Origin: a virus
Taxonomy: Duplodnaviria > Caudoviricetes
Strand: one strand, 5' to 3'
IMG/VR virus record: IMGVR_UViG_2905444465_000001
Span: 25,723-89,722 of that record
DNA length: 64,000 nucleotides
A program made the translations under genes and the position numbers. Below the pieces are notes generated by a model that saw nothing but the letters and a program-made list of their open reading frames with translations, searched no databases and was not told the DNA's origin. Of the stretch, positions 2,143-49,150 are shown piece by piece. The number at the start of each line of letters is the position of its first letter. Within the stretch, counting starts at the first letter, position 1.

Positions 2143-3710
<1,568 letters not shown>

Positions 3711-3727
3711 GCCCCATAGACGCACGA

Positions 3728-7058: not shown

Positions 7059-7110
7059 CGTACCACCTCCATAATTTTATAGGGAAATGTGATATGTAAG
7101 GCTGCGTAAC

Positions 7111-7263: not shown

Positions 7264-7360
7264 AATGAGTACCTCCGCTATAAAACAAGCGGCTGTACTC
7301 TAAATTATAGAAATACAGCCGCATTTTTACCAATGTGCAAATTTATCGTTCTCGTCCCTT

Positions 7361-8317: not shown

Positions 8318-8746
8318 CTACTCAAAAAACTTTTTTAATTTTTCTTTGAGCCTATCCATTCTTCTGTAAACAGCTTTTTCAGTAATATCCAGATACACCG
8401 CAATTTCACGGGTTGAATATCCTTGTATCTTCATCAAAGCAATCTGCAATGTAAGCCTGTCCACCTTAATCAAAACTTGATAGAGGTGCTGATTTTCGAT
8501 GCTGTCCAGAAAATCCTCAACCGTTTTGACTTCGGGCTGTGTAGTATCTTCAGCAAGCTCGTCAAGATATGTACCTGTTTCCTGCACTCGCTGATAATAC
8601 CGTCTGTCTGAATTAAAAATCGCCCAATCGTGAATACGGAGCTGTTCTATATCGTCCTCAGTAACGCCTAAGTTCCGCAACTGCTTTTCCTCGGCTTCTT
8701 TCCAGAGCCGCCATTTCTTTTCTTCTTTGGCTTTGTTGTATGCCAT
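8318..8746 (-). CDS. Sigma-70 region 4-like HTH regulator
   Basis: MAYNKAKEEKKWRLWKEAEE ... GYSTREIAVYLDITEKAVYRRMDRLKEKL; start at ATG 8746 behind GGAGG; homolog of 36518-36943. Confidence 0.8.
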   Translation of the reverse strand: MAYNKAKEEKKWRLWKEAEEKQLRNLGVTEDDIEQLRIHDWAIFNSDRRYYQRVQETGTYLDELAEDTTQPEVKTVEDFLDSIENQHLYQVLIKVDRLTLQIALMKIQGYSTREIAVYLDITEKAVYRRMDRLKEKLKKFFE

Positions 8747-9151
8747 ATCGTTTCCTCCAATCTGAATTTTTGAAAAATCCAGATTGGCAGGCGGTGAACG
8801 GCAACCGACAGAAAAGCAAAAAGCCGCAAAGGTACTAAGACCTCTACGGCAATAAGCGTAAGCATATCTATAATTAAGAGATGTAATCTCTACTTGTAAA
8901 ATGTAAGAGTGCCACGAGTGAGTGATGATTTTTTCTAAAAGATAATCTTCACTCCACTGTGACACTCCGTAAATAGTAGCTGCTTCTGATGAGCAGCATT
9001 GCGGTCATATTCGACCATCGCATAAAAAAATTCCTCCAAACTCGAAAACGGGTTCGGAGGGAAGTTGAATTTTCGTCTGGGCGTGTTTATACTGCCCACC
9101 AAAGCACCGTTTTTTTTATTTGGTGGGCTTGCTTCATATTGATTTTAAAGC

Positions 9152-10228
9152 TTATCTTACTTGATGTTTTGAAAATGCCTTATGGGAAATGATTGAACCT
9201 ATTACTACTAAAGCAATCGCAACAGGAATAGACCATACTGCATAAAGCATACCATTGTGCATTTGTTCAACAGACATTATGGAAATATACTGTGAATAGA
9301 AAAGGGGCATCAGCACAATAATTCGATATAATGCACTTGTTTCAGAGATAGGAAGCATTATCGGTATCACATGAATAGCTGCTGAAATTACAAACGCTAT
9401 CATTTGACTTTTACAAACAGCAGACAGAATTAAAACTATTCCTGTTACACTGATTGCACTCATAAACGCCAACAGGATTTGATACTTTAATACTGTTCCG
9501 CAAGTAATATTAAACGGAATATACCCTTCTAAAAAATCTATTGGAGCAAAAAGGATAGAGCAGTCCAGCCCCTCTGTTCCATAAATAGCAACCGCAATAA
9601 GCAAATTGAAAATAACAACCAAAGTCGTTATGAAAACGGCTGAAAGTAAACTTGCTAATACTTTTGCTGTGGCACATTTTGTCTTTCCGTATTTACTTGT
9701 CAAAATAATGTTATCCACTCCACCATACTCGCCAGAGAAAACAGGAGCAATTAGCAAAATAATTACTAATGAAAGGACAATAAAAATCTTCGCCATATTT
9801 TGGCTTGTACTAAGCCAACCGTTTACATACCCAACTTTTATTTCTTTATCGCCAAATACATCTGCTACGCTTAACCCGTTCCAATTTCCATCTATATCAG
9901 CAAAATGGGAGAATACAGAAGACTGCAAAGCATTTTGATAAATGTATTTTGCGTTCATTCCATGTAAATCTTGAGTAGGCTTAAACTCAGACATCATCTG
10001 CTGTACTTTATTGTCAGTTAACTTTCCCTCATACTTCAATGCAATTTGCTTATCAATTTCTACCGCAGCTTTTCCAGTTTCCTCTGCACCGTTTCCGTCA
10101 AATGCGTACATACTGTGAAGCGTGGAAAAAGACAGTATCAAGGACAATAGTAATACGGCAGCAACAGAAATAACCGCAAAGCGTTTTGTCAATATTTTTC
10201 GTAATTCAAACTTGATTAGATTTTTCAT
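9152..10228 (-). CDS. ABC transporter permease
   Basis: MKNLIKFELRKI start, multiple TM segments, FSGEY...ILTSKYGK motif; coupled to the ATPase gene. Confidence 0.85.
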   Translation of the reverse strand: MKNLIKFELRKILTKRFAVISVAAVLLLSLILSFSTLHSMYAFDGNGAEETGKAAVEIDKQIALKYEGKLTDNKVQQMMSEFKPTQDLHGMNAKYIYQNALQSSVFSHFADIDGNWNGLSVADVFGDKEIKVGYVNGWLSTSQNMAKIFIVLSLVIILLIAPVFSGEYGGVDNIILTSKYGKTKCATAKVLASLLSAVFITTLVVIFNLLIAVAIYGTEGLDCSILFAPIDFLEGYIPFNITCGTVLKYQILLAFMSAISVTGIVLILSAVCKSQMIAFVISAAIHVIPIMLPISETSALYRIIVLMPLFYSQYISIMSVEQMHNGMLYAVWSIPVAIALVVIGSIISHKAFSKHQVR

Positions 10229-11100
10229 TATTCGTTCACTCCTTTAAAATAGAATAGATACAAATCCTCTAATGTAGGTTCTACCTTTATCGCATTTTCC
10301 ATAGGCGACTGTTCAGAAATCACACGCAGAACCGTACAATTATTTTCAATGTTTCGCAAATTGCTTATATTCAGAGTTTCAGAATATTGCTCCGCACGAC
10401 TGGTCGGAACTGTACATTCCCATACCTGTCCGTCAATTTCTGTGGTAATTTCCTGCGTTTTTCCAAAATGGAGAATCTGACCGTCTTTCATCATAATAAT
10501 GTCCTCAGCAATAAACTCGACATCAGAAACAATGTGCGTAGAGAGAATAACTATTCTATCTTTAGAAAATGCACTAATCAGATTACGAAAACGGACACGC
10601 TCTTTTGGGTCAAGACCTGCTGTCGGCTCATCTAAAATTAAGATGCGTGGATTATTCAACATCGCCTGTGCAATACCTAAACGTTGTTTCATACCACCAG
10701 AGAAAGTTTTGATTTTGAGGTTCCTTTTCTCTGCTAAATCAACAGCTTCCAACAATTCTGTTGCTTTCTTATGAGCTTGTTTTTCACTCAGTCCTTTTAA
10801 TGCCGCAACATACATAAGGAAATCCCAAGCTGTAAAGTCTGGATAATATCCAAACTGTTGCGGTAAATATCCCAATAAATTACGGTACTTCTCTCCGAGT
10901 ACAGATATGTTTTTCCCATCCAAAGTAATTTTCCCAGAGGTCGGTGTCTGAATATCGCAGAGTAACCGCATAAGGGTAGTTTTTCCCGCACCATTTGCAC
11001 CAAGCAAACCGTAAACGCCATTTGATAATGAGAGGTTCAAATGGTTTACGGCTGTTTTTGAGCCATATTGCTTTGTTAGTTGAATTGCTTTAAGTTCCAT
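10228..11100 (-). CDS. ABC transporter ATP-binding protein
   Basis: Walker A GANGAGKTT, signature FSGGMKQR, Walker B ILILDEPT. Confidence 0.95.
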   Translation of the reverse strand: MELKAIQLTKQYGSKTAVNHLNLSLSNGVYGLLGANGAGKTTLMRLLCDIQTPTSGKITLDGKNISVLGEKYRNLLGYLPQQFGYYPDFTAWDFLMYVAALKGLSEKQAHKKATELLEAVDLAEKRNLKIKTFSGGMKQRLGIAQAMLNNPRILILDEPTAGLDPKERVRFRNLISAFSKDRIVILSTHIVSDVEFIAEDIIMMKDGQILHFGKTQEITTEIDGQVWECTVPTSRAEQYSETLNISNLRNIENNCTVLRVISEQSPMENAIKVEPTLEDLYLFYFKGVNE

Positions 11101-11191
11101 ATCAAAAACTCCTTTCGTCTTAGGGAGCAAAAAAATACTCTCCATGTGTTTACATAGAGAGTATAGAATGCAATTTTCTACTTTTTATCTA

Positions 11192-12367
11192 CTAATCGAG
11201 AGATTTGAAAAAAGCAGTCACTTTTGCTCCGATTGAGCAATTTTCAATTTTCAGATAACCACCGTGATGTTCACATAAAATTTTACAGATATACAGCCCA
11301 AGTCCGAAATGCTCAGAGTGATTTTCTTCTTCCGTAAAATATGGATTGGTTGCTTTGCTTAAAATATTTTTTGAAAAGCCACATCCATTGTCTGAAACAG
11401 AGAGATAAAAGCCATCATTATTACTTGTGTAAGTGATGTTTACCTTTGATGTTGCGTATCGGATTGCATTTGAAATCAAATTATTATTAACTTGTGAAAC
11501 AAAAGTATAATCAATGCCAATAGGAATATCGGAAATGTTATTTTGAATAGAAAGAGTTTTTCCACTTTGCTCACACAAAATTCTTGCACTATCAGCTATT
11601 GCGGTCACATAACCGCTTATATTAGACTTGTCACTTATGGGTTGAGCATCTTCTAAACGACGCAAGTGGCTCATACTATCAACATATCTTTCCAAACGGA
11701 AAATATGTTTTCCCATTGTTACAGCGGTGCTTTTGGTTATTGGGTCATGGTTGGACTGTAAAATTTCATTATACCCTTTTAATACGGTAAGTGGAGTACG
11801 TAAATCGTGAGCAAAAGCAGCATTAAGTTGTTTTCGTTCTTCCATTTGCCGCCACATTTCAGAGAAATTATTAGCAAGGGTAAAACGCATTGTTTCAAAT
11901 GATGAACACAATTCTCCTAATTCATCTTTGCTGTCATATTTAATTGAGAAGTTTAAATTATTATTAGAAATCATTTCAGAAGCGGCTTTTAATTCTGTAA
12001 GCGGTTTTTTTAACTTGTTTCTATAGAATAACAAGGTCGCCGTAATAATACATAACGCTGAATAAATCGGAGTTGCAATTATTGGGGCAACTTCACATAT
12101 TGAAAGTAACCGTTGGTCTTTTTCAGACATTGCAACAGGTGCAACTCCAATATAATTGCCATCACCGAGTCTTTCTCCATTTTCATTTGTTAAATAATAT
12201 TTTTCTCCTGTTGGGGGATATTTGCTTTCAATCGTTTTTGTAGCATTATTGCACAAAGTAGCTGTTCCTGCACTTAATAGAATGGCAAGAATTACAAACG
12301 CTGAGATATAAAGTATTATACTTTTTCGCAATGACAGGTTACACCACATTTTCTTTATCTTATCCAC
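11192..12367 (-). CDS. Sensor histidine kinase (HAMP, HisKA, HATPase)
   Basis: Two TM segments, AHDLRTPLT H-box, NLISNAIRY N-box, DNGCGF, GLGL. Confidence 0.95.
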   Translation of the reverse strand: MDKIKKMWCNLSLRKSIILYISAFVILAILLSAGTATLCNNATKTIESKYPPTGEKYYLTNENGERLGDGNYIGVAPVAMSEKDQRLLSICEVAPIIATPIYSALCIITATLLFYRNKLKKPLTELKAASEMISNNNLNFSIKYDSKDELGELCSSFETMRFTLANNFSEMWRQMEERKQLNAAFAHDLRTPLTVLKGYNEILQSNHDPITKSTAVTMGKHIFRLERYVDSMSHLRRLEDAQPISDKSNISGYVTAIADSARILCEQSGKTLSIQNNISDIPIGIDYTFVSQVNNNLISNAIRYATSKVNITYTSNNDGFYLSVSDNGCGFSKNILSKATNPYFTEEENHSEHFGLGLYICKILCEHHGGYLKIENCSIGAKVTAFFKSLD

Positions 12368-13029
12368 TTATATCCACACCCCCAAACTGTTTCAATATAA
12401 GATTTATTTGTGTATGCTGCAATTTTTGTTCGTATTCTGCGAATATGCTCGGCAACAACACTACTATCTCCCTCACTGTCATATCCCCAAACTCTTTCAT
12501 AAATTCTCTCTTTATCAAAAACTTGTCCTGCGTTTTGAGATAATAACTCAACAATGTCAAATTCTTTTTTTACAAGACCAATAGGTTGGTTCTGTATATA
12601 AACAGTTCTTTCAGAGTAGTCAATTAAAAGTTCTCCTGAAAACTTAACTTTTGTATTCGTTTGATGTCGTTCTTCTCTTCTTAAATGTGCTTGCACTCTG
12701 GCTTCAAGTTCAACAAGAGAAAACGGCTTAACAATATAATCATCACCACCTACGGAAAATCCTTGTACCTTATCATTTTCTTCAATACGGGCAGTTAAAA
12801 AGAGTATAGGGCAAGAAACATAATCCCTAATTTTCTTGCAGACTTCCATCCCATCAAGCTTCGGCATATTTATATCTAATAAGATTATATCTGGTTGTAA
12901 TTCTGCTAATTTGAGGGTTTCTACTCCATTATAAGCAGAAAAGACCTCATAGCCCTTGCTTCTAAAAAATCCTGTAAGCATTTCAACTATATCAACTTCA
13001 TCATCGGAAATTAAAATCCTGTACCTCAC
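12355..13029 (-). CDS. OmpR-family response regulator
   Basis: ILISDDE, ILLDINMP, DDYIVKPF, IETVWGCGY; probable GTG start at 13029. Confidence 0.95.
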   Translation of the reverse strand: MRYRILISDDEVDIVEMLTGFFRSKGYEVFSAYNGVETLKLAELQPDIILLDINMPKLDGMEVCKKIRDYVSCPILFLTARIEENDKVQGFSVGGDDYIVKPFSLVELEARVQAHLRREERHQTNTKVKFSGELLIDYSERTVYIQNQPIGLVKKEFDIVELLSQNAGQVFDKERIYERVWGYDSEGDSSVVAEHIRRIRTKIAAYTNKSYIETVWGCGYKWIR

Positions 13030-13066
13030 ATATAACACCTCCATAATAAACACTAACGAAAAATTT

Positions 13067-13246
13067 TCAATTTTTCATCAACTTTTTTCTTGCATCAGCA
13101 GGCTTTTCAGCATTTTTCGGAATAAGCCACACACGGTTAATATTCATAACCCCCTCAATACGGTTTCCTTTACAAAGTCTTTGTACCCATCTTAACGATA
13201 CGTTCCACTTTTCAGCGGCTTCCTGTGCTGTCATATATTCAAACAT
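13067..13246 (-). CDS. Small excisionase-like HTH DNA-binding protein
   Basis: MFEYMTAQEAAEKWNVSLRWVQRLCKGNRIEGV...WLIPKNAEKP; GGAGG RBS; divergent from the Xre gene. Confidence 0.8.
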   Translation of the reverse strand: MFEYMTAQEAAEKWNVSLRWVQRLCKGNRIEGVMNINRVWLIPKNAEKPADARKKLMKN

Positions 13247-13440
13247 ATCTGACCTCCTAAGGTGTACTGTATATATTATAGCCGTTTGAACGAACAGTAT
13301 CAAGTGTGCAATTATGAACTTTGACCGCTTGTAATAAGAGATTTTATATCCTAATATCAGAGATTTCAAATCGTTCTATAAGAACTCACATTTCTGTAAA
13401 ATATAATAGTAGCATTTTGCAGATACAAGGTGGTGAGTTT

Positions 13441-13800
13441 ATGGACACAAGAAACAATGATTTTGACTTCGATTTTACACCGATAGGACAGGCAATCAAG
13501 AAAGCAAGGACAGCAAAAGGTATGACCAGAGAGCAGCTTGCTCGTATTGTAGATTATGACCCAAGACATCTTCAAGCGATTGAAAATGAGGGACAAAAGC
13601 CAAGTCTGGAGCTGCTCATTCAGCTTGTGACAATGTTCGGTGTATCGGTTGATGAATACATATTCCCAGATAATGAGGTCAAAAGAAGTTCCGTCCGCAG
13701 ACGCTTAGACGCAGAACTCGACAAACTAAACGATAAAGAGCTGTCCATAGTTGAAGCAACTGTCAGCGGACTATGTAAGGCAAAAGAGCCAGAGGAATAA
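13441..13800 (+). CDS. XRE-family HTH transcriptional regulator
   Basis: IKKARTAKGMTREQLA...IENEGQKPSLELL; followed by hairpin CCAGAGG-AATAAA-CCTCTGG plus T run. Confidence 0.9.
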   Translation: MDTRNNDFDFDFTPIGQAIKKARTAKGMTREQLARIVDYDPRHLQAIENEGQKPSLELLIQLVTMFGVSVDEYIFPDNEVKRSSVRRRLDAELDKLNDKELSIVEATVSGLCKAKEPEE

Positions 13801-23788: not shown

Positions 23789-24601
23789 TTACCTCGTTTC
23801 TTTGGATTTTGGTTTCTTTTTCTTTCTCTGGGGCTGTTTATGCTCCGTTTTCCCGTTAGCACTTTTCGCCCTGTCGGAAGCTCCGCTTTTGTCCAGGGCG
23901 GAAGTGCCAATCTCTGCTTCCTGCTCCTTGCGGCTCTCCTTGATTTTCCGCAGTTCCTCTCTGACAGAAGGTTTCTCCTTAGTCATAGTAGCCCCCTCTG
24001 CGGACTTCTTTGGCTGCTCTGAGGTAGGCTCGGACTGAGGGGATTTTTCTGTCTTTGCCACCGAGGGGTTTGGGGCGTTTTCCTCCTTCTGGACGGGCTT
24101 GCCCATAAGCTCGTCAAGCAGCTTGTCTTTCTCCGCCTTTTCCTGCACACCAATCTCTGGCTCTGGCTGACCGTCCTTTGCATCTTTGGATTTCTCGGCT
24201 TCCGTCACAATAGAAGCGGTATCCACCGAAGCAAGATTAAAGCGTTCCACGATGCGGCTGATTTTCGATGCGTCCTCGGCACGGGCGATGACATCGACCT
24301 CCGCATTGTGGTCTTTGTTTTTCCTGTCTGTGAGGACACAGTAAAGCACACCGTATTTTTTTGCTTCCTGCGTGAACTTCTTTAAGTCGTCACTTTTGAC
24401 GGTAAAGACTTTCAGCTCCTTGCCAGAACGGAGCATACTTGTCAGCCTTGCTTTGCCTTTGGTTTTCTTTTCTTCTTTGAGAATGGAATACAACAGGATA
24501 GCGATGTTCTTCGCACCTGCACCTGTGATTTTGGCAGCGACCTCAAAACCCTCCAAGCTCATTCGGACGATTTGTTCTGCCGCTTCGCCGCCTGTGTTCA
24601 T
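23789..24601 (-). CDS. PcfB-family protein
   Basis: MNTGGEAAEQIVRMSLEG, FTQEAKKYGVLY, RAEDASKISRIVERF. Confidence 0.85.
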   Translation of the reverse strand: MNTGGEAAEQIVRMSLEGFEVAAKITGAGAKNIAILLYSILKEEKKTKGKARLTSMLRSGKELKVFTVKSDDLKKFTQEAKKYGVLYCVLTDRKNKDHNAEVDVIARAEDASKISRIVERFNLASVDTASIVTEAEKSKDAKDGQPEPEIGVQEKAEKDKLLDELMGKPVQKEENAPNPSVAKTEKSPQSEPTSEQPKKSAEGATMTKEKPSVREELRKIKESRKEQEAEIGTSALDKSGASDRAKSANGKTEHKQPQRKKKKPKSKETR

Positions 24602-25955
24602 TCTTCATCAGCTCCTTTCTTTGCTGTTCTTTTTCGTCTGCCCGTATCGTCTGCAATTTTTCTTTGAGGGTATCACTACGGGCAGCGATGCCCTCGCACA
24701 TTCTGACCTCCTTTCGGATAATTTTCAGCCGTCCCGAAATATCGGAAAGCTCCGCCTTGACCGCTTCCTTTTCTTCACCGCTTATCCTGCGGGATTTGGA
24801 GTAAAGCTCCTTTCGCTTCTGAAGCAGGGCAGACATCTCCGTTTCCAGAGAGCCTTTATATGAACAAAGCTGCTCCGCCGTATCAATGTGATTGTGGCAA
24901 AGCAACCTTGTTTCCAGTGTGATGGCTTCCATCTTCATAAGGTCGTCCTTTAGGAGATAATGAAGCCGTGCATAATTTTGTTTTCTGCCTTTTGGCAGGA
25001 TACCGAGCTTGTAGCAGTAATGGAGATACAGCCCACGCAAGCCGCCCATTTTCTTGGCGTTCTTCAATGAGCCTTTGACCCGATAGACCTTGACCTGCGG
25101 CTGTGGCTCTGAAAAGCTCTGGAATTTGACCGCATAGGAATTTTCGCTGATACGCTCCATAATCCTGTCATTGGTGTATTCCTCTCCAAGCTTATAAAGC
25201 CGCTTGGGTCTTTGCCAGCCCTTGCCGATAATCGTCCAATACTTGCGGTTGGGGTCAAAGTTTATGCGGTAACCCATTTCTGCCAACTGGCGGTCAAAGT
25301 CTTTCAGCGTAAATGATTTGCTGATAGCTTCATCCACCGCTTGTCTGGCAACATTATCCCTCGTGGGTCGCCCCTGCTTTTCGGCTTGGTAAAGGGCGTA
25401 GGGCTTTTTCTTGCCGCTTGGGTGTTCGATGACAGACAAGGCGTACTCACGGCAAAGCTCATCGGAACGCTGACGGAGCAGCCGCAGATTTGCTTTGTTG
25501 TCGTGGTAGTGCATACCGTCAGCAAAAGAAACAGCGTTCACGACAAAGTGATTATGCAGGCAGTCGGTATTTAGGTGGGTGGCAACGATGACTTGAAATC
25601 TGTCGCCCCACATTCGCTCGGCAAGTTTAACGCCGACCTCGTGTGCCTGCTCTGGCGTAACCTCACCGTGCTTGAAGCTCTGGAAACCGTGATAGCAGAC
25701 AATCTCACTCGTATCGTTCCATTGGACTTTGGCAATCATCATTTCATCTCTGGCGGTGGTCGGGTCACAGTTTATGCCTGTGACAAAAAAACGCTGCTCG
25801 GTCTTATCCTTATTAGTAGCGTACTCCATTACATCGACCATCGCCTGCAGGTCGGCTTCGGTGTATTTGGGGTTGGCGGTCTTTTCGGGATTTTCGGCAT
25901 AGTCGATTGGGTGGTCGAGCCTGCCACGCACATCCCATATCTCGCAGACCGCCAT
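24543..25955 (-). CDS. MOB-P type relaxase
   Basis: YAENPEKT, YHGFQSF, ATHLNTDCLHNHFVVN (HxH), downstream of mobC. Confidence 0.9.
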   Translation of the reverse strand: MAVCEIWDVRGRLDHPIDYAENPEKTANPKYTEADLQAMVDVMEYATNKDKTEQRFFVTGINCDPTTARDEMMIAKVQWNDTSEIVCYHGFQSFKHGEVTPEQAHEVGVKLAERMWGDRFQVIVATHLNTDCLHNHFVVNAVSFADGMHYHDNKANLRLLRQRSDELCREYALSVIEHPSGKKKPYALYQAEKQGRPTRDNVARQAVDEAISKSFTLKDFDRQLAEMGYRINFDPNRKYWTIIGKGWQRPKRLYKLGEEYTNDRIMERISENSYAVKFQSFSEPQPQVKVYRVKGSLKNAKKMGGLRGLYLHYCYKLGILPKGRKQNYARLHYLLKDDLMKMEAITLETRLLCHNHIDTAEQLCSYKGSLETEMSALLQKRKELYSKSRRISGEEKEAVKAELSDISGRLKIIRKEVRMCEGIAARSDTLKEKLQTIRADEKEQQRKELMKNEHRRRSGRTNRPNELGGF

Positions 25956-26284
25956 TACGATGACCTGCGTGGAAGCAGATACCTTTTGCGAATGTCAATC
26001 TGAAATTCGTGCCATTTCCTTGCTTCCACACGGAGCATCGGGGCATCCACAAAACCGAGGGCGTTTGCCTTAACCGCAAGCTGATTGATACGGTTGCCAA
26101 TGGCGGACAGCTCACGCATCATTTTATAGAACTCTGGGTCGGGCTTCTCGCAGAGCTGATAGCCCCTTACCATTTCTCTTAAAAAGGCTTCTTTTGAGCG
26201 ACCCGATTTTCGCACAAGCTCATTAAGGTGTTCGGCTTCCTCCTCAGTCAGACGGAAAAGTATCTGCACATTTCTTTTTCGCAT
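25955..26284 (-). CDS. mobC: MobC relaxosome accessory protein
   Basis: FRLTEEEAEHL RHH-like start, LSAIGNRINQLA motif. Confidence 0.85.
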   Translation of the reverse strand: MRKRNVQILFRLTEEEAEHLNELVRKSGRSKEAFLREMVRGYQLCEKPDPEFYKMMRELSAIGNRINQLAVKANALGFVDAPMLRVEARKWHEFQIDIRKRYLLPRRSS

Positions 26285-26855: not shown

Positions 26856-27845
26856 TCAACGGGCATCACTCCTTTCACGCTTGGGCATAGGTCTTGCAAT
26901 TTTCAGATAGGACAACAAAAAATCGTTGAAGTCCTTGCCGACAGGCGGTGGATCATCAACGATTTTGTAGTCTTTCTGCAACAGTTCTTTCAAAGTAGCG
27001 GTACAAAGCCTGCCTACCTTATCATTATCCAGATGCAGAACTATGGTCTTAATTTGTGGATTGGCACTCAAAAAAGTTGTGAGAGCTATGGGGATTTTGC
27101 TGTCCTTCATCTCTTTCTTTGGCTGATACACGCCCGATAAAGAGAGGAAACTTTCCGATTTGTAGTCCTTGCCCTCGCATTTCAGATAAGTGGCATAGGA
27201 CAGTAAATCAATAGCAGCTTCAAATAAATGCACGGTATCCGCAGGCTTCTTTGCCAGAAGTCGGAACGAATACCGCTTGTCGCTGCCCGATGCGTCCTGC
27301 TTGAAAGTGCTGCCGAGAGTGCCTCGCAGGGCGGCATATTTCGGTGTTCCGCTTTCGTCTTTGCCGATAAAAACAGCATTGTGATAATCGGCACTCTCAT
27401 AGAGCGTGCCATCTGAGATACACTCCTGTATGAGCTGATGGTCAATACCACGCCCGAAAAGATACTGTATCACTCTGTTACAATCCTTATTTTTTGGCGG
27501 CAGGAGCAGAACTTTCGGCTCATCTTTCTTGGGAGTAGGGGGTGGCTTCCAGTCCGCCATAGTCTGTCCCGTGAGAATTTCCACGGCTTCCACAAAGTCA
27601 TATTCCTTGACTTTGATAAGATAATCGAGGGCAGAATAGCCGCCGAAACCTCTCGACCACCAATACCATTTGCCGTTGGAAATCTTTAAGCTGTCGTGTT
27701 CTGCTGTACAGTACACATTGCTTGTGCCTTTGACCTTAACGAGATTGCTCGGCTCAAACTCCCGCAGATAGGATAACAGGTCAATCTGTCGTACCCGTTC
27801 AAGCACATCAGGGTCAATCTGCACATAGGGTCGGTTAGTTCTCAA
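26856..27845 (-). CDS. DUF3991/Toprim primase-like protein
   Basis: HDSLKIS, YLFGRGI, LFEAAIDLLS, LHLDNDKVG (Toprim DxD), KDFNDFL. Confidence 0.85.
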   Translation of the reverse strand: MRTNRPYVQIDPDVLERVRQIDLLSYLREFEPSNLVKVKGTSNVYCTAEHDSLKISNGKWYWWSRGFGGYSALDYLIKVKEYDFVEAVEILTGQTMADWKPPPTPKKDEPKVLLLPPKNKDCNRVIQYLFGRGIDHQLIQECISDGTLYESADYHNAVFIGKDESGTPKYAALRGTLGSTFKQDASGSDKRYSFRLLAKKPADTVHLFEAAIDLLSYATYLKCEGKDYKSESFLSLSGVYQPKKEMKDSKIPIALTTFLSANPQIKTIVLHLDNDKVGRLCTATLKELLQKDYKIVDDPPPVGKDFNDFLLSYLKIARPMPKRERSDAR

Positions 27846-27929
27846 TGGATAAAATCACCTCCTGAAAATAGAAATAGCCGAGGGCTTTCGTTAAATGAAA
27901 ACCTCTCGGCTATGTAAAATATAGTTCTT

Positions 27930-28517
27930 TTAGAATGAAAAAAGCATCCCTTTTTCTGTTGCGATATTATAAATCCATTTGTTACCCGTAGGGCTTACCA
28001 AATTACTAATATTCGCAATTTCCTTAATTGTTTTTTCTACAAACTCTGAATTATGCAACTTATAATTTTTTGCAAAGCAATCGCAGCACTCCTGCATTTT
28101 TGCATCGGCAGGTGGAAAAAGAGCCATTGGAACATCTTTTGCATCTAAACGACCCTTGATATTACCTCCCGATATTAGGCTTGCATTACCGTCACGCCCT
28201 TTACCTGCTATGAGAAAATAGAACGGCAAAGCTAATATAGCATCACAATTTGTATCGGCTACTCGCTTATAAAATGCTTTTATAATATCAAGTAAATCAT
28301 CGGTAGTTAGGCAATCTTTATTTGTCGCCTTGTTCAAATCTATTGAAATAGCCTTTTCAATAGCTGCGTTACCTGCACTTGAAAAAGCTAAATGGTCATT
28401 TATCATAAGGACTTTGTCTAAATCATCTGACAAAGTTTTCCCGTCAATACTTGACCCTCGCTTATCGCCTGCAATAATTATACGGTTATTTTCTTTTATT
28501 CCAAAGATAACACTCAT
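27930..28517 (-). CDS. Proteasome beta-subunit-like Ntn hydrolase with N-terminal Ser
   Basis: After Met removal S1-VIFGIKENNRIIIAG-D17-K-R19...D-K34-VLMINDHLAFSSA-G48, matching the Thr1/Asp17/Arg19/Lys33/Gly47 spacing of proteasome beta subunits; AAGGAGG RBS and own promoter. Confidence 0.8.
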   Translation of the reverse strand: MSVIFGIKENNRIIIAGDKRGSSIDGKTLSDDLDKVLMINDHLAFSSAGNAAIEKAISIDLNKATNKDCLTTDDLLDIIKAFYKRVADTNCDAILALPFYFLIAGKGRDGNASLISGGNIKGRLDAKDVPMALFPPADAKMQECCDCFAKNYKLHNSEFVEKTIKEIANISNLVSPTGNKWIYNIATEKGMLFSF

Positions 28518-28545: not shown

Positions 28546-28575
28546 ATCATACCACATTTTTATGAATTTTTCCAC
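28546..28575 (-). promoter_or_regulatory. Sigma-A promoter of the Ntn-hydrolase gene
   Basis: TGGAAA-17 bp-TATGAT; 27/30 identical to the catP promoter at 46524-46553. Confidence 0.7.
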
Positions 28576-28629
28576 CTCTGCGGCTATGTAAAAGCGGCAT
28601 CAGCTCCACGCCAATGCCGCCGTTCTCGG

Positions 28630-28977
28630 TTATAAAATTCCTGCCTTTTTGAGATACCCAACGCTGTCATAGCACCCTCTGAAATAGATTGCTTCCTGCT
28701 GCATATCGCTGAGCCTGTTCCGAAGCTCCAAAACTTCTATCAAAGCCTTACACTCCTGCTCGGATAAATCGCTCGGCTTTTCCGTATCCAGAGCCTCCAT
28801 CACTTTTGGATACTCCTTGTAGAGTTCCTCTATCCTTTCCTCTATGGAACGGTATTCTGGATTTTCTTTGGGCAGCTTTGCGATAACGGAGCTTAGATAT
28901 TCAGCAAAGATGTTGCTATGCACATCAACAAAGGTTTCAAATCTGAAATTATCAAGCACACCTTTCACCTCCGACAT
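28630..28977 (-). CDS. Conserved hypothetical protein (DUF6664-like)
   Basis: 115 aa ending IYFRGCYDSVGYLKKAGIL; upstream TTGTAT-17-TATAAT. Confidence 0.65.
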   Translation of the reverse strand: MSEVKGVLDNFRFETFVDVHSNIFAEYLSSVIAKLPKENPEYRSIEERIEELYKEYPKVMEALDTEKPSDLSEQECKALIEVLELRNRLSDMQQEAIYFRGCYDSVGYLKKAGIL

Positions 28978-29036: not shown

Positions 29037-29976
29037 TTATCTCTCCCGACTTGCACATTTTCTTTCGGGCTGTTCTTCTGTCTGCTCTGGCTCAGTATCC
29101 ATAACGGAAGTATCTTTTTCATTTAGATTCAGCTCAATGTTAAGAGCGTTCAGCCGTTCTGTTTTTTCTTTCAGCTCATCTTCAAAGGCAAAAGGCTTCT
29201 TGATTTCCTCCTTTGCGGTTTCAAGCTGTACGATAGTTTCCGCCTTTTTGGTCTTGGCAGCTTCCAGTCTAGCAGGGAGCTTTGACAGCTCGTTTTCAAT
29301 TCGGGTCAGATTTCCGAGGGCATCAGCACCTAAATCCACCTTATGCTTTGCCTTTCCGCAGAGGTTCATACAGTAATGGGCATTGACAGTATCATAATAA
29401 ATCTCCATTCGGAAACCTCGGTAGCTGCCGATTTCGGTAGGTGCGGACATCGGATAATCCTTGCAGATTGCAAGGAGCATCTCGCCTGCGTCTGCCTTTT
29501 CGGTGTAGGTCATACCTTTTAGGGTCATCGGGCAGAACTTATCCTCACCCTGCGGCTTGTGCTGCTCGGCAAATGCTGCATCATTTTCATAGCCTGCAAT
29601 GCGTTCCTCATACTCCTTAATGGTCTGGGGATAGTATTTCAGCACCCTGTCCTCAAGGTCGTAATGTTCGGAAAGATAACTCTGCTTTAACACTCGAAGC
29701 TTTGATACCTGTATATCCAAATCCATCTTTTCCTTAAAACGGGCATCGCCTGTGGCAAGCATTTTAACCTCCGCAAAGGACAGGGCAACCTCGTCCACAT
29801 CTTCAGCAGAACGGACAGGGCTTTTGCTCGTCATTATCTGGCTGATAAATTTCTGCTTGCTCTCCACCAACTGATAGAGGTAGGCATCAAAAGTTTGCTC
29901 TGTCACATAACGGTAAACCTCCACCTCTGGGAACATATTGCCCTGCCTTTCAATACGCCCCTGCCTTTGTTCAAGG
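29037..29976 (-). pseudogene. 3' fragment of the interrupted methylase/SNF2 helicase gene
   Basis: DLEQRQGRIERQGN (helicase motif VI) resumes right after the GA at 29977-29978. Confidence 0.9.
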
Positions 29977-31834
29977 TCAGTCGGTCATTTTTTGCGGACA
30001 GTTCAATACATGCCTGTCTGTTTCGCTCCCTGCTCCTGCGTTTGCTCTCGTTTGATTTCTCCCTCTGTATCTTCTTGGCACAAGCAGGACAATACTTCGA
30101 TATGCCAGAGCGGGGAACATATTCAACACCGCACACCGTACAATTCTTAGGCTTTAACGCAGTCCACCGCTTTGTCGGTGTGATATGTAATTCACCGACA
30201 AAGCCGATGAATTTATAATAAATCTTGATTTCCTGCCGCACCATTCCGTCTGTAAGTTTCTCACGTTCCGAAACAAGTATCTTGTCTATAAGTGCGTTTA
30301 TGATGGTTGCGTCCAGTTCCTTAATGCCTTGATAGTTGCGGATTAGGGAGAGGAAATCACGGACACCCTGCGTCTTCTCATAGCTGTCGCTGAGCGTTTC
30401 CGTTACCTCTTTCAGCCTTGCTTCAATTTCAAGCTGTTCTTTCTGGTATTTTCCCGACATCATCTCAAAATTCCGCTCGGTAATACGCTCCATCACCTTA
30501 TCTTCATAGAGTGAGGAAAACAGCCTGTCCAGTTCTGCAAGGCGTTTGTTCAGTTTTCTTTGCTCCTTTTCCAGTGCCTTTGCCTTGCTCTGGTCTGTTT
30601 CCGTGAGCCGCTTTTCAATCGCCCTCACTGCCTTTTCATCATTGACTGCCATATCCGCAAATCGGTTGATGTCGGTGAGGACAGCGTTGAACAAGTCCCT
30701 CGCTTCAATGCTGTGTGCGGTACACATGATATTACCGTATCTGCCATAATTATTGCAGGAATATTGTACGCAGTCGATGATGTCGGGGCGTTTCCTCCTG
30801 TTGGCACTCATAGCCCGCATCGCATAGCCGCAGTCCGCACACTTAATAACGCCTGCAAAGATGTTCTCAAAGCCGCCCTTGTTTTCTGGTAATCTGCGGC
30901 TTGTAATAAGCTGCTGTACGGTATCAAATTCCTCCTGCGTGACTATCCCCTCATGGGTGTCTGGTATCACTTCCCATTCTTCGGGCAGCTTAGAGGGGCG
31001 TTTCTTGCTTTTCATGTTGGCGGCAATCCGCTTGTAGCCTGCAAGGTTTCCCGCATATATCGGGCTTCTTAAAATGCCCCTTACGCTGTTCTCGCTCCAA
31101 ATATAACGGTTCTCCTCATTCTCCTCAAAATACCTCTCATAGCCTGTTGCCCCCTGCTCCGCCGCATAAGCGGCGGGGCGTAAGATATGCTGTTTGTTGA
31201 TGTGCTTGCGGATTTTGGCGATTCCGTTGCCCGCTAACGCAAGGTCAAATATTTCCCTTACCACATGGGCAACTTTGTCATCTATCAGCAGATGGTTGTG
31301 GTCGGCGGGGTCTTTGACGTAACCGTATGGTGCTGTCGTCCCCATGAATTTCCCCTGCTGAAACCTCGCTCGGTACGCCGATTTTATCTTGACCGACACA
31401 TCGGCGGAATACATTTCGTTTAGGATGTTGCGGAAAGGCGTGATGTCCATAGCGGATTTATTGAGCGTGTCCACGCCGTCATTGACCGCTATATACCTCA
31501 CATTATGCTCTGGGAAAAACACTTCCAGATACAGTCCGCAATCAAGATAGTTCCTCCCCAGACGAGATAAATCTTTCGTGATAACGCAGTTTATCAGACC
31601 GCTTTCAATGTCCTTAATCATGTTCTGGAAACTTGGTCTTTGGAAATTTGTACCAGAGTAACCGTCGTCCACATACGTTTTTGCTAAGTGCCATCCCTGC
31701 TTTTTCACATAATCCGTGAGGATGGATTTCTGTGTCGCAATGCTCGCACTCTCGTTATCCGTGCCATCGTCTTTTGACAAGCGGCAGTACATGCCGACTT
31801 CATAAATCTTGTTCTCCATTCTTATTCCTGCCAT
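29903..31834 (-). CDS. Large serine recombinase (TndX/TnpX-like) of the tet element; last 24 codons come from the target gene
   Basis: MYCRLSKDD, TKDLSRLGRN, KCADCG zinc ribbon; ORF crosses the element end at 29977. Confidence 0.92.
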   Translation of the reverse strand: MAGIRMENKIYEVGMYCRLSKDDGTDNESASIATQKSILTDYVKKQGWHLAKTYVDDGYSGTNFQRPSFQNMIKDIESGLINCVITKDLSRLGRNYLDCGLYLEVFFPEHNVRYIAVNDGVDTLNKSAMDITPFRNILNEMYSADVSVKIKSAYRARFQQGKFMGTTAPYGYVKDPADHNHLLIDDKVAHVVREIFDLALAGNGIAKIRKHINKQHILRPAAYAAEQGATGYERYFEENEENRYIWSENSVRGILRSPIYAGNLAGYKRIAANMKSKKRPSKLPEEWEVIPDTHEGIVTQEEFDTVQQLITSRRLPENKGGFENIFAGVIKCADCGYAMRAMSANRRKRPDIIDCVQYSCNNYGRYGNIMCTAHSIEARDLFNAVLTDINRFADMAVNDEKAVRAIEKRLTETDQSKAKALEKEQRKLNKRLAELDRLFSSLYEDKVMERITERNFEMMSGKYQKEQLEIEARLKEVTETLSDSYEKTQGVRDFLSLIRNYQGIKELDATIINALIDKILVSEREKLTDGMVRQEIKIYYKFIGFVGELHITPTKRWTALKPKNCTVCGVEYVPRSGISKYCPACAKKIQREKSNESKRRSRERNRQACIELSAKNDRLTLNKGRGVLKGRAICSQRWRFTVM

Positions 31835-38146: not shown

Positions 38147-39367
38147 TCAATCCCGCTTCTTTCCCGCCACCGGCACTAAGAACAGCGCGGGCAACAGCAG
38201 GAAAGCGGTACAGACCAGCCCCCAGGGTATGGACACCTGCTGGGCTACCAGCCCCACAATAGGCCCGCCGATGATCTGCCCGAAAGAGTCCAGCTGTCCG
38301 CTGGTGGAAAAGACTGTGGCGCGCATTTTCTCATCCACTTGGTCGTTCATCCAGGCGGCCAGCACAGGCTCCTTGATGGTGCGCATAAGCCCCGCCAGCA
38401 GGAACACCAACAACATGAACCAAAAGCTCCGCCCCACCGCGAAGAGAACCAGGAACAGGATATACCCGGCGCTGGTGGACATGACCACACTGGTTCGGCT
38501 GACAGTCCCTTTTTTCTCCATGCGGGCGATGAGCAACTGAGAAGCCAGAATACCTAAGCCGTTGCCGATAAGACTGATAACACCGAACCAAGTGACGCTG
38601 TTCAGCGGCCCGATAACGGGTATTACCGTGTCATCCAGAAAATGAGCGGTGGAGAGCCGGTCAAAGCCTTCACTGGCAAGTCCCCCGCATAGTGTGATTG
38701 CTAAGAGCGCCAGCAACACAGGTGCGCCTTTCACAAAGCCCAGGTTGAGCTTGAACAGGCAGACAAAGTCTTTAAGCAAGCCCTGCCGTTCCTCAATAGC
38801 AGGGGAGAAGTTGGTTTCTGGCATGATGCGAACCATCACCAGCCCCAACAACAAGCACAAACTGCCCCCCAAGATGAGAGGCATTTGCAGGTTTATGTTT
38901 CCCAGCAGTGTGCCCAGCACCACGCCCAGAACGCCGCCGATTTGCCCCATTTGACTGCCCCGCAGGAACACCTTGTCTATGGGTTTGTCCTCTTCCTCCG
39001 AGGCAATCCACGCCTCCAGAGCGCCGGTGATGAAGGTATCACCGCAACCCCAGACAACCTGGGCCAGCAGAACCGGCGCGAACCACGGTAGCGCACCCTC
39101 CATCAGAAAGCCCAGGCCGTAGAGGAACATTCCAATCAGCACCGAGCGCCGACGGCTATACAAATCCGCCACCACACCGGTGGGCATCTCGAACAGAAAG
39201 CAGGAGGTCTCCTGAACCGTCCCTACCAGGACAAGCTGGAAAGCATCCAGCTGCACCACCTCCAGGTGGTACACGATGGAAAGCACTGTGGACATAGAAA
39301 CCGCCAGGGAACAGACAAATCGGAACAGCAGGTAGACAGAATATGCCTTTGAATTTTTAGCAAACAT
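38147..39367 (-). CDS. tet(40): Tetracycline efflux MFS transporter Tet(40)
   Basis: 406 aa from MFAKNSKAYSVYLLFRFVCSLAVS; TetA(P)-like MFS, directly downstream of tet(O). Confidence 0.9.
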   Translation of the reverse strand: MFAKNSKAYSVYLLFRFVCSLAVSMSTVLSIVYHLEVVQLDAFQLVLVGTVQETSCFLFEMPTGVVADLYSRRRSVLIGMFLYGLGFLMEGALPWFAPVLLAQVVWGCGDTFITGALEAWIASEEEDKPIDKVFLRGSQMGQIGGVLGVVLGTLLGNINLQMPLILGGSLCLLLGLVMVRIMPETNFSPAIEERQGLLKDFVCLFKLNLGFVKGAPVLLALLAITLCGGLASEGFDRLSTAHFLDDTVIPVIGPLNSVTWFGVISLIGNGLGILASQLLIARMEKKGTVSRTSVVMSTSAGYILFLVLFAVGRSFWFMLLVFLLAGLMRTIKEPVLAAWMNDQVDEKMRATVFSTSGQLDSFGQIIGGPIVGLVAQQVSIPWGLVCTAFLLLPALFLVPVAGKKRD

Positions 39368-39417
39368 GAAGTTACATTCTCCTTTCAAATCTCATTTTAT
39401 ATGACTTTTGCAAGCTG

Positions 39418-41337
39418 TTAAGCTAACTTGTGGAACATATGCCGAACCTTATCTATACGGCTATTCGGGCGGCGGGGTTGGCAAATAAATTTACCAATAG
39501 CTGGCTGGTATCCTTTTAACTCTGTCAAGCAGACTCCCTGCCCATTTGTGAAATAAGTTAAATCGTTCCTGTATTCTTGAATACATCTAGCAGGGATTTC
39601 TCCTTTCAGAATGACCTCGTCATTCTTTATCTGAGTACTTACAATATCTGCACAATACCTTGGAGCATCATGATACGCCCGTGAGAGATATTCCTGCGGT
39701 GCATAAATTTCAAAGTGGAGATATGGCTCTAATAGTTCTGTCCCTGCTTTTTTTAAAGCCTGCTCCAATACGATAGGGGAAAGCAGCCGAAAGTCTGCGG
39801 GGGTACTTACAGGACTATAATACAATCCATATTCAAAACAGATTTTACAGTCTGTCACTTTCCATCCATACAGCCCCTGCTCGCAGCCATAAAGAACCCC
39901 CTCCATAACCGCATTTTGGAACGATTGATTTAAATATCCAAGTGAAACTCTGCTTTCATACTGCACTCCGCTTCCAATAGGGAGCGGCTCTATGGACAAC
40001 CCGACAGAAGCCCAGAAAGGATTTGGCGGGACTTCTATGTGGATGGTATATTCTGCTTTTCTAAGCGGTCTTTCCATATATATAACAGTAGGCTCTTTTA
40101 TTTCTGCCTCCACATGATATTTTTCCTCAAGGATGGCACAAATGACTTCCATCTGCACATTCCCCAAAAAAGAAAGTATAATCTCATGCGTTGTAGTATC
40201 CACATAATATTTTAAAAGAGGGTCGCCATCTGAAATTTCTGTAAGTGCCCCAAGCAATATTTCCCGCTGTTCAGGTTTCTTTACTGCAATCGTTGTTTGG
40301 AGCATAGGGAGAGGATTTTCAATAAATTTTCTCTGCGGCAACAGCATTTCGTTCCCCAAAATACTGTTTAGCTGCAAAACATCATTTGGTAAAATTACAA
40401 TATCACCAGAGCAGGCTGTATCGGATGGATATAATTCACCGTTTGTCGGAACACACATCTCTGTGATTTTTATTTTCTCTTTTTCAGATATTCTAATAAC
40501 ATCCCTCAAATGCAATGTTCCGCTATATATACGCACATAAACAAAACGCCGCCTTTTCTCTGAATATTCAATCTTAAAAACCTGCCCGCATAATTCAGAT
40601 TGACCTTCAGGCGTTGATGAATAAAATTTACTGGCAATCACTTCTATAAGCTGCCGAATCCCCAGATTGTTTTTAGCGCTTCCGTGATAAACGGGAAATA
40701 ACGTTCCGTTTTGGAATCTCCTGTTTTCTTCCTGTTCCAGTTCTGACATTTTAAACGGTTTCCCTGACATATATTTCTCTAATAGTTCATCGTTTCCCAT
40801 AATTACCGCATCCCACTGTTCCATATCGTCATTGTCCGTTACATTTATATGGGGATGCTGCCCAACCTTTTGCTTCACTATAATTTCCGAAGAAAGCTTT
40901 GCTTTCATTTCCCGATATACCATTGGCAAATCAATCCCCTCTTGGTCAATTTTATTGATGAAAAAGATTGTCGGAATCTTCATTGTCTGTAGTGCATGAA
41001 ACAGTATACGGGTCTGTGCCTGTATGCCATCCTTTGCAGAAACTAATAATACTGCTCCGTCTAAAACGGATAAAGAACGGTATACTTCCGCCAAAAAATC
41101 CATATGGCCTGGCGTATCTATAATGTTGACTTTTACATCCTCCCACTGAAAAGATGTCACTGCTGTCTGGATAGTGATTCCCCTTTGACGCTCCAAATTC
41201 ATTGTATCTGTCCTTGTTGTGCCTTCATCTACGCTCCCTAGTTCTGCAATTGCACCACTGGTATACAATAAACTTTCCGTTAATGTTGTCTTTCCTGCGT
41301 CAACGTGAGCCAGAATGCCTAAGTTAATTATTTTCAT
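39418..41337 (-). CDS. tet(O): Ribosomal protection protein Tet(O)
   Basis: 639 aa, [39 protein letters not shown] loop, ends RHMFHKLA. Confidence 0.95.
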
Positions 41338-45852: not shown

Positions 45853-46476
45853 TTAACTATTTATCAATTCCTGCAATTCGTTTACAAAACGGCAAATGTG
45901 AAATCCGTCACATACTGCGTGATGAACTTGAATTGCCAAAGGAAGTATAATTTTGTTATCTTCTTTATAATATTTCCCCATAGTAAAAATAGGAATCAAA
46001 TAATCATATCCTTTCTGCAAATTCAGATTAAAGCCATCGAAGGTTGACCACGGTATCATAGATACATTAAAAATGTTTTCCGGAGCATTTGGCTTTCCTT
46101 CCATTCTATGATTGTTTCCATACCGTTGCGTATCACTTTCATAATCTGCTAAAAATGATTTAAAGTCAGACTTACACTCAGTCCAAAGGCTGGAAAATGT
46201 TTCAGTATCATTGTGAAATATTGTATAGCTTGGTATCATCTCATCATATATCCCCAATTCACCATCTTGATTGATTGCCGTCCTAAACTCTGAATGGCGG
46301 TTTACAATCATTGCAATATAATAAAGCATTGCAGGATATAGTTTCATTCCCTTTTCCTTTATTTGTGTGATATCCACTTTAACGGTCATGCTGTATGTAC
46401 AAGGTACACTTGCAAAGTAGTGGTCAAAATACTCTTTTCTGTTCCAACTATTTTTATCAATTTTTTCAAATACCAT
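45853..46476 (-). CDS. catP: Type A chloramphenicol acetyltransferase CatP/CatD
   Basis: 207 aa MVFEKIDKNSWNRKEYFDHY..., catalytic QVHHAVCDGFH. Confidence 0.93.
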   Translation of the reverse strand: MVFEKIDKNSWNRKEYFDHYFASVPCTYSMTVKVDITQIKEKGMKLYPAMLYYIAMIVNRHSEFRTAINQDGELGIYDEMIPSYTIFHNDTETFSSLWTECKSDFKSFLADYESDTQRYGNNHRMEGKPNAPENIFNVSMIPWSTFDGFNLNLQKGYDYLIPIFTMGKYYKEDNKIILPLAIQVHHAVCDGFHICRFVNELQELINS

Positions 46477-46657: not shown

Positions 46658-47029
46658 TTATGAATACACAATATCGTTTAATACGATTTCATCTACGCAA
46701 GCTCTGATATTGTTCATCAATCCTATCCATCTCATCATATCCACAGCCTTTAATTGCTCGGTAACGCCTTGCTTTCTTGCCATTTCCTTTATGAGATATT
46801 CAGCCATATCACAAGCCGAAGTGTCAATCTCGGCAAGGTGTTCATATAACTTTCCACTTGTCATCAGAGTGTAATATAAAACTCGCTTGTGTTCTTTCAA
46901 ATATCGCTCTCGCATTCTTCCGTACCTTGAAAGCAAAGGTTTTTCTTCTGCGGTTAAGCAGGGGTAGTAATAGTCCCCGATAAGTTCATATCGGATACCC
47001 GTTCTTTCGTCTGTGATAAATCTTTGCAT
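46658..47029 (-). CDS. tnpV: TnpV (overlaps tnpX 3' end by 76 nt)
   Basis: GDYYYPCLT, LMTSGKL, QGVTEQLK, WIGLMNNIR. Confidence 0.88.
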   Translation of the reverse strand: MQRFITDERTGIRYELIGDYYYPCLTAEEKPLLSRYGRMRERYLKEHKRVLYYTLMTSGKLYEHLAEIDTSACDMAEYLIKEMARKQGVTEQLKAVDMMRWIGLMNNIRACVDEIVLNDIVYS

Positions 47030-49077: not shown

Positions 49078-49150
49078 TCTTTTTACCTCCTTCCTTATGT
49101 ATTTTTCAATTTAGGACAGTTAAATTCATCGTCCTATAAAAGTATATCCC

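Follow-up and report, generated by a model that had tools for sequence, protein, structure and literature searches.

A partner-less proteasome-type hydrolase with a predicted N-terminal serine nucleophile in an exchangeable slot of a Clostridia conjugative element, and its possible role in conflicts between mobile elements

Fuchs, Alva & Lupas in 2021 catalogued 22 groups of orphan proteasome homologs, including five Firmicute clusters (FC1-FC5) and phage-borne groups, all of the new groups being devoid of propeptides, and found the genomic context of these orphans not informative (PMC8665760). Many of the bacterial orphans still await a function. The nucleophile also varies among proteasome-like proteins: Connectase uses Ser1 in M. 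jannaschii and Thr1 in M. mazei (PMC7980362), and CodW, the HslV-like protein of B. subtilis, has been reported to be an N-terminal serine protease (PMC7468587). Here, we describe a gene of this kind from a 64,000-nucleotide stretch of DNA (the window; positions 25,723 to 89,722 of IMG/VR virus record IMGVR_UViG_2905444465_000001), in which it is cargo of an integrative and conjugative element (ICE). An earlier interpretation made from the letters alone (the sequence-only reading) had proposed a stand-alone N-terminal nucleophile (Ntn) hydrolase with Ser1; its background statement that Connectase uses Ser1 is correct for M. jannaschii and not for M. mazei, and its general statement that HslV uses Thr1 does not agree with what has been reported for CodW. 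Ser1 is thus not unique to the family described below, whose genomic contexts make the function of orphan proteasome homologs directly testable.

The gene is an open reading frame (ORF) of 195 amino acids on the minus strand (27930..28517), and its product can be assigned with high confidence, from a structural model, to the proteasome-beta-type Ntn hydrolases with an alpha-beta-beta-alpha fold, as had been anticipated. The AlphaFold2 model, built on 32 homologs, has a mean predicted local distance difference test score (pLDDT) of 95.2 and a predicted template modelling score of 0.91. When it was compared by VIA-align with 48,161 Protein Data Bank (PDB) representatives, 20S beta subunits were the top match, e.g., the immunoproteasome beta chain 6e5b_K (Z 19.4, root-mean-square deviation 2.4 A over 177 residues), with further Z values of 18.1 for Anbu (5loy), 16.1 for BPH (5ovs), 15.4 for HslV, and 11.0 for Connectase; distant Ntn hydrolases (NAAA, acid ceramidase, and the penicillin and N-acyl homoserine lactone (AHL) acylases) lie at Z 8-12. 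Model residues 2..195 are placed on residues 1..190 of 6e5b_K, such that residue 2 coincides with residue 1 of the mature chain, and the same holds for the mature chains of Anbu, BPH, HslV, and Connectase. Foldseek retrieved at least 500 proteasome chains at E <= 1e-3 (top 1.3e-9). At the sequence level, the Pfam Proteasome model PF00227 matches residues 4-52 only, at 24.5 bits against a gathering cut-off of 22.4, and a profile built from 40 family members finds both alpha and beta chains of proteasomes among PDB entries (E 7e-9 to 2e-8; residues 5-118), the HMMER alignments ending at approximately residue 118. Matches to PHROGs are weak only ('HslV family', E 0.04), and tblastn of the protein against PLSDB and INPHARED gave zero matches.

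27930..28517, minus strand: CDS of a proteasome-beta-fold N-terminal Ser hydrolase; Ser2 (mature Ser1), Asp18, Arg20, Lys35, Gly49, and Pro136

Read in the ORF, the residues of the putative active site are M1-S2...D18-K19-R20...D34-K35...S46-S47-A48-G49 (S1, D17, R19, K34, and G48 in mature numbering), i.e., the Ser/Asp/Arg/Lys/Gly spacing of the proteasome beta active site that had been noticed earlier, and they are conserved in the family. Homologs were sought in 5.8 billion proteins clustered at 90% identity and, by an exhaustive phmmer search, in 1.84 billion representatives at 50% identity; each of these two independent searches yielded about 100 family clusters, and canonical proteasomes or HslV were absent from the results of both. 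Nearly all members are 192-202 amino acids long and start at query residue 1. In an alignment of 32 close relatives (32-88% identity), M1, S2, D18, R20, K35, G49, G105, P136, C144, V174, S175, G178, and W181 are invariant, and in an alignment of 40 distant ones (22-56% identity), D18, K35, G49, P136, and W181 remain so. Position 2 is Ser in all 32 close relatives and in 35 of the 40 distant ones, the other five having Thr, and R20 is present in 37/40. The sequence-only reading had named two outcomes that would refute it, a fold other than Ntn and homologs without Ser/Thr1, Asp17, and Lys33; neither came about, as the modelled fold is Ntn and these residues are conserved down to 22% identity. 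The family thus has the catalytic triad and the glycine of the oxyanion hole by which proteasome-like proteins are defined (PMC8665760). The possibility of a spurious ORF or a pseudoenzyme was ruled out by this conservation of the catalytic set. The homologs begin with Met-Ser or Met-Thr, and so there is no propeptide, as had been supposed; where an N-terminal extension seems to be present, as in a few members, a Met-Ser or Met-Thr occurs internally, which suggests that the start was mis-called. The protein is also stand-alone, since a search for longer forms found just two singleton fusions.

The protein has all the defining features of the proteasome-like superfamily (Pfam PF00227 / MEROPS T1), among them an Ntn fold in which strands S1-S11 and helices H1-H4 form the core. 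With 20S beta subunits (MEROPS T1A), it shares the Ntn fold, a nucleophile at mature position 1, equivalents of Asp17, Arg19, Lys33, and Gly47, and a PF00227 match above cut-off. Unlike them, it has Ser1 instead of Thr1, no propeptide or autoprocessing, no alpha or AAA+ partner, no recognisable Asp166/Ser169, and no C-terminal helix H5, and its gene is carried on mobile elements. The GSG (Gly-Ser129-Gly) loop is absent as well; MALFPPAD, which had been noted at roughly that place, occupies residues 131-138, and by model topology the family has x-Pro136-x-Asp there, with Pro invariant, between strand 131-134 and helix 141-154. Likewise by model topology, no D-x-x-S-G motif precedes the last strands, where V174-S/N175-x-x-G178 is found instead.

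Serine is a good P1' residue for methionine aminopeptidase, and it is therefore proposed that removal of the initiator Met exposes Ser1, the hydroxyl of which would act as the nucleophile. Lys33/34 and Asp17 would activate this hydroxyl, and Gly47/48 would form the oxyanion hole, as in proteasome beta subunits. With these residues in place, the protein may well be a catalytically competent, partner-less Ntn hydrolase of the proteasome type, and peptide-bond cleavage would be its most likely reaction. Because the N-terminus would be the active site, a signal peptide is not possible, and the enzyme would be cytoplasmic.

The sequence-only reading had left room for either a protease or a transpeptidase, and the same fold might indeed support another chemistry, such as that of a Connectase-like sequence-specific transpeptidase/ligase or of an amidase whose substrate is an amide other than a protein, e.g., in a signalling molecule, the cell wall, or a lipid. 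Ser1 is shared with M. jannaschii Connectase, an invariant Pro in place of the GSG/Ser129 loop implies that the active site is non-standard, and NAAA, acid ceramidase, and the penicillin and AHL acylases match the model at the Z values given above. Nonetheless, this appears quite improbable. The Z value to Connectase is 11.0 versus 19.4 for beta subunits; H1/H2 are present in the model as helices 51-62 and 72-88, and its 19-35 loop is short with no S3/S4 insertion, whereas Connectase lacks H1/H2 and has a two-helix S3/S4 lid (PMC8665760); the Asp17-Lys33-Gly47 set is that of peptidases; and apart from Connectase, every characterised protein of the proteasome-like branch is a peptidase. Connectase (DUF2121) resembles the protein in being a partner-free, proteasome-like Ntn domain without a propeptide, with Ser1 in one species, but it is archaeal and chromosomal and has a defined substrate, MtrA. 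The protease part of the earlier proposal is thus retained, and the ligase part is disfavoured.

No dedicated partner is apparent. A Pfam scan of 20 neighbouring ORFs found conjugation genes only and no alpha subunit, HslU, AAA+ unfoldase, ATP-grasp, or transglutaminase gene, in agreement with what had been read from the letters, and the ATP-grasp and transglutaminase-like genes of Anbu operons are likewise absent from approximately 13 contexts of relatives. PF00227 is matched once in the 89.7-kb record, and the 3.2-Mb carrier genome G001 (Coprococcus aceti) has no PF00227 gene besides the family member. No HslU (TIGR00390) match exceeds the cut-off in the 89.7-kb record or in the carrier genomes G001 and G003; the matches below the cut-off lie in other AAA+ ORFs of 444-496 amino acids that resemble ClpX. 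Across the approximately 13 different contexts, there is no conserved neighbour.

These properties set the family apart from HslV and Anbu. HslV and CodW (MEROPS T1B) are compact, of similar size, lack H5 (Z 15.4), and require removal of the initiator Met for activity, but the family is found without HslU in the record and in two carrier genomes, is optional cargo rather than housekeeping, and has no HslV sequence match beyond the general family signal (PHROG E 0.04). BPH and Anbu also lack propeptides, and BPH works with no known unfoldase; however, both use Thr1, neither is known as mobile-element cargo, and Anbu resides in a conserved operon with the ATP-grasp and transglutaminase-like genes that are absent around the gene studied here. 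The phage-borne PPH/AAH homologs (PMC8665760) provide a precedent for proteasome-like genes on phages and prophages, but PPH is approximately 140 amino acids long, lacks H2, belongs to group I, and occurs mainly in Proteobacteria and their phages, whereas the present family has about 195 amino acids and H2 and is found in Clostridia. The closest likeness is to FC1-FC5 of group II (PMC8665760), which are Firmicutes-restricted, without a propeptide, AAA+ partner, or known function; the profile of the present family, like group II, matches alpha and beta subunits about equally. The family probably belongs to or borders these Firmicute clusters, to which it was compared by their published descriptions; the published context of FC1-FC5 is uninformative, whereas here mobile-element slots, a BREX (bacteriophage exclusion) locus, and phage moron sites are seen. 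The nearest other matches in Clostridia genomes are FC4-like proteins (E ~1e-7).

Three proteins of Clostridia genomes with a proteasome-like N-terminal domain (363-435 amino acids; L032:688-1779, minus strand; L033:92-1189 and 1501-2808, plus strand) carry a long C-terminal region that looks like a phage tail fibre on reading; two of them start with Met-Ser, and the two genes in L033 lie side by side. These fusions are probably of the FC4 type of the 2021 survey.

It follows from the existing catalogue of 22 groups (PMC8665760) that calling the gene an undescribed system was an overstatement. The family is a variant within a known proteasome-like kind, and its mobile-element and immune contexts are informative. 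On fold, autonomy, and mobility, the sequence-only reading was right; the function it suggested appears plausible, and its claim of novelty was too strong.

The first of these contexts is the window itself. It is an ICE of Clostridia, despite the entry of the record as viral in IMG/VR. From ~13.8 kb to 64 kb, it is a conjugative element with a type IV secretion system (T4SS), relaxase, sortase, and adhesin, and no phage structural genes were seen within that range. On the minus strand, the order is ParA, ParB, thioester/SpaA adhesin, polyvalent LPD25-N6 methylase-SNF2 protein, DUF6664, the Ntn gene, DUF3991/Toprim primase, a 105-amino-acid ORF, NikA, MobA/VirD2 relaxase, DUF3801, VirD4, VirB4, sortase, and lysozyme/CHAP hydrolase. 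The slot occupied by the Ntn gene thus lies two ORFs (the 105-amino-acid ORF and the primase) upstream of the NikA-relaxase operon, and the Ntn gene forms within it an autonomous promoter-gene-terminator cassette with the following parts and flanks:

28630..28977, minus strand: DUF6664 gene, ICE backbone flank upstream of the slot, present with other cargo too
28593..28621, minus strand: terminator-like hairpin after DUF6664 (-21.1 kcal/mol, z -2.1), which insulates the cassette from the upstream gene
28574..28593, no strand assigned: upstream copy of a direct repeat that bounds the cassette, 20 nt, TTTTACATAGCCGCAGAGGT on the minus strand
28546..28574, minus strand: promoter-like site, TGGAAA-17-TATGAT plus the TG of an extended -10; this stretch is also conserved before different cargo in L019
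28525..28533, minus strand: ribosome-binding site (RBS) AAGGAGGTG, 7 nt before the ATG, read from the sequence; strong
27901..27919, no strand assigned: downstream copy of the direct repeat, 19 nt, TTTTACATAGCCGAGAGGT on the minus strand, which makes up the first arm of the terminator hairpin
27874..27913, minus strand: terminator-like hairpin 3' of the Ntn gene with 15-nt arms, followed by T-rich TTTCTATTTT (-23.8 kcal/mol, z -5.6)
26856..27845, minus strand: DUF3991/Toprim primase, ICE backbone flank downstream of the slot (Pfam scan)
24543..26284, minus strand: NikA-like accessory gene and MobA/VirD2-type relaxase (Pfam scan)

An AT-rich gene with its own promoter, RBS, and terminator had been described earlier, and a promoter-like site, an RBS, and a terminator-like hairpin are indeed present. 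The GC content is 35.5% in the Ntn gene versus 48.4% and 47.1% in the 5-kb flanks, and among 14 family loci it is below both 5-kb flanks in 11 and ties with or exceeds one flank in the other three.

That the gene is ICE cargo was also correct, and this cargo is swappable. With an identical DUF6664 flank, the slot holds the Ntn gene in 8 of 10 places, a 282-amino-acid protein in one (L019), and a 451-amino-acid SEC-C protein in one (L022). In L019, the promoter stretch and both copies of the repeat are conserved, and because the promoter-like stretch precedes a different cargo gene there, it belongs to the slot. A copy with 76% identity occupies the same slot in a diverged ICE. A dedicated partnership of the Ntn protein with DUF6664 was considered and rejected, since DUF6664 stays when the cargo changes.

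The 282-amino-acid cargo (L019:3959-4807) is a member of a Firmicute family that is widespread, has no Pfam domain, and extends to C. difficile. Its model (pLDDT 92) gives nothing in Foldseek at E <= 1e-3, and the VIA-align matches, at Z of only ~5, are mostly to ADP-ribosyltransferase (ART) folds (DarT, pertussis-like PltA, Scabin, Rhs ART toxins, and Tpt1). A divergent ART enzyme is possible on this modelling, but the structural matches are too weak to assign the slot to defence or counter-defence. The third occupant (L022:3959-5314) ends in a SEC-C motif, through which alone it has weak PADLOC matches (PDC-S12, E2-like), and the downstream backbone of L022 differs in having a PLDc_2 fragment in place of the primase.

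The distribution of the family is that of mobile accessory DNA, with many contigs but a sparse presence in species genomes. The 90% cluster of the window protein has 914 member sequences, and one of its members is on 248 contigs; the ICE with the swap slot is very common in the gut. In contrast, the carrier genome at the centre of the sample was the sole full match among 398 sampled Clostridia species genomes, and a scan of species genomes with the single protein gave three loci only. The family is restricted to Firmicutes, where it is found in Clostridia.

Nearly every context of the relatives is a mobile element or an immune locus. Three samples contain a complete type I BREX operon in which a relative with 47% identity is inserted between brxC and pglX, leaving gaps of 4-16 nt. 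One 55% relative, on a ParA/ParB/RepA_N element with a T4SS, adjoins an AbiLi-like ATPase (PADLOC 2e-25) and its partner, and another 55% relative adjoins the TIR protein PDC-S66 (PADLOC 2e-61), an SH3 protein, and an AriA-like fragment. In Lachnotalea glycerini, a 37% relative is located on the lysogeny side of a prophage, in the order serine integrase, helicase, P2-Old-like nuclease (4e-63), Panacea-domain pair, Ntn gene, SWIM-domain ORF, and cI-like repressor. [quoted passage not shown] In phage L035/36, a 55% relative is placed between two ParB-methyltransferase (N6/N4) genes upstream of the packaging genes, and in phage L041, a 28% relative is part of an early region with PemK, RlaP, a CCA-adding enzyme, a methylase, and Tad4. 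Other relatives are beside serine recombinases or resolvases at element edges, and one follows DUF3987 and DUF5677.

The BREX operon of the 47% relative (L037/L038) also has a small DUF4357 gene between pglX and pglZ (12122-12442), and so it contains two extra genes. The Tad4-family gene of L041 (14570-14923) encodes a sponge of the anti-Thoeris/CBASS (cyclic oligonucleotide-based antiphage signalling system) type.

Several of these positions have well-described counterparts. PARIS is embedded in a Salmonella BREX island at the brxC-pglX position (PMC11341690); gene 15 of HK97, the founding moron, is a superinfection-exclusion gene between the tail chaperone and the tape measure (PMC3594210); and the Tai defence genes occupy phage moron loci upstream of packaging genes (PMC11364771). 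The family resembles HK97 gene 15-type morons, as a promoter-gene-terminator unit in the interval from tail chaperone to tape measure, and PARIS, as an extra gene embedded in a BREX locus, but the proteins are unrelated, and the analogy is positional only and silent on mechanism. By this analogy, the BREX, AbiLi-like, TIR, prophage-lysogeny, and tail-moron contexts appear to be the usual places of defence or exclusion genes. A role in conflict, whether defence or counter-defence, had been suggested earlier and would fit the contexts of the relatives. It is reasonable to propose that the gene is a cassette (moron) that mobile elements plug into accessory slots and that serves conflicts between such elements, most likely as a single-gene phage-exclusion or defence protease, which would be constitutive in the resident cell and the target of which would be a protein either of the invader or of the host, in the latter case one that the invader requires. 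The direction of this conflict is read from position, and defence is proposed tentatively, though it appears more likely than counter-defence.

The same gene could, however, be a counter-defence or establishment factor, made early after entry of the ICE or phage and destroying a host immune protein or another barrier; in the ICE, the protease would then act together with the primase and polyvalent methylase-helicase next to it. The slot is transcribed toward the nikA-relaxase operon, with two ORFs in between, and is on the side expected to enter first (by an orientation rule that we infer), and the leading regions of conjugative elements show an enrichment for anti-defence genes and orphan methylases, which all share that orientation (PMC11541004). 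Protease or peptidase genes are not mentioned in that study, and both the place of oriT (the origin of transfer) and the direction of transfer of the ICE are presumed. Moreover, such a role offers no obvious reason for an anti-defence gene between brxC and pglX, for a lysogeny-side prophage site beside Old and a repressor, or for an insulated moron in a late tail operon. Counter-defence is considered rather unlikely.

Nonetheless, a number of observations weigh against a defence protease. The ICE slot and the ParB-methyltransferase and Tad4 contexts are more suggestive of counter-defence: the second backbone gene from the slot encodes the LPD25-N6 methylase-SNF2 polyvalent protein, the L035/36 gene is flanked on both sides by ParB-N6/N4 methylase genes, and the L041 early region, with Tad4, methylase, RlaP, and the CCA-adding enzyme, looks like a counter-defence cluster. 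Known defence genes are near only about 5 of approximately 13 distinct contexts, the annotation of neighbours being incomplete, and no mobile-element genes are visible near locus L008. The BREX embedding is one lineage and no recurrent association, as a scan of metagenomes with the BREX-embedded member found one more copy of the same locus only. None of the PADLOC-DB 2.0 defence models matches the protein at E <= 10. The canonical Ser129/Asp166/Ser169 network, mapped by topology, is unrecognisable in the family. Finally, the 195-amino-acid protein has no obvious sensor domain by which its activity would be restrained; the obvious options are activity that depends on assembly, as in proteasome subunits (PMC8665760), or a narrow substrate specificity.

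A role outside any conflict must also be weighed, in which the protein would be a service protease of the element or of general proteostasis, processing or removing an element-encoded regulator or structural protein or clearing damaged proteins in hosts without HslUV. Indeed, G001 has no other proteasome-family gene, G001 and G003 have no HslU, and ATP-independent clearance has been raised for orphan homologs (PMC8665760); the fusion of FC4-like relatives to tail-fibre-like domains and the location of some members in tail operons also hint at a virion-related role. Against this, the gene is optional in its slot, where other cargo replaces it, and it is very sparse, being present in the carrier genome only among the 398 species genomes. 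Its neighbours differ in almost every context, such that no fixed substrate gene travels along, and insulation of the moron type is not what would be expected of a gene integrated into the programme of the element itself. On balance, a service role seems improbable.

The defence protease thus remains the proposal that we favour. A stronger form of it, in which the family would be the first immune protease of the proteasome type (N-terminal Ser/Thr) and a partner-less protein of 195 amino acids would both recognise and cleave a phage or host target, is more doubtful. If it were correct, orphan bacterial proteasome homologs would gain their first function, and a defence role would bring proteasome-type chemistry into the bacterial immune repertoire as a minimal single-gene system. 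If counter-defence were correct instead, conjugative elements that bring resistance genes with them would have in this family a proteolytic tool of anti-defence as well. Enzymologists, too, might take an interest in a compact Ser1 Ntn enzyme that lacks a propeptide, as they did in Connectase.

Several features of the window lie outside the cassette. The gene for the polyvalent LPD25-N6 methylase-SNF2 protein is split into an N-terminal ORF of 2058 amino acids (49126-55302) and a C-terminal piece of 299 amino acids (29037-29936). The two parts are separated by small mobilisable elements, two in tandem, both of which have a large serine recombinase (29903-31834 and 46954-49077), a Mob_Pre relaxase, and an AAA_25 protein; their cargo comprises a tetracycline ribosomal-protection-type GTPase (39418-41337), a major facilitator superfamily (MFS) transporter (38147-39388), and a chloramphenicol acetyltransferase (45853-46476). 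The junction of the recombinase with the 299-amino-acid piece is also present in L024. At the start of the window, positions 1-13800 have a GC content of 32-44%.

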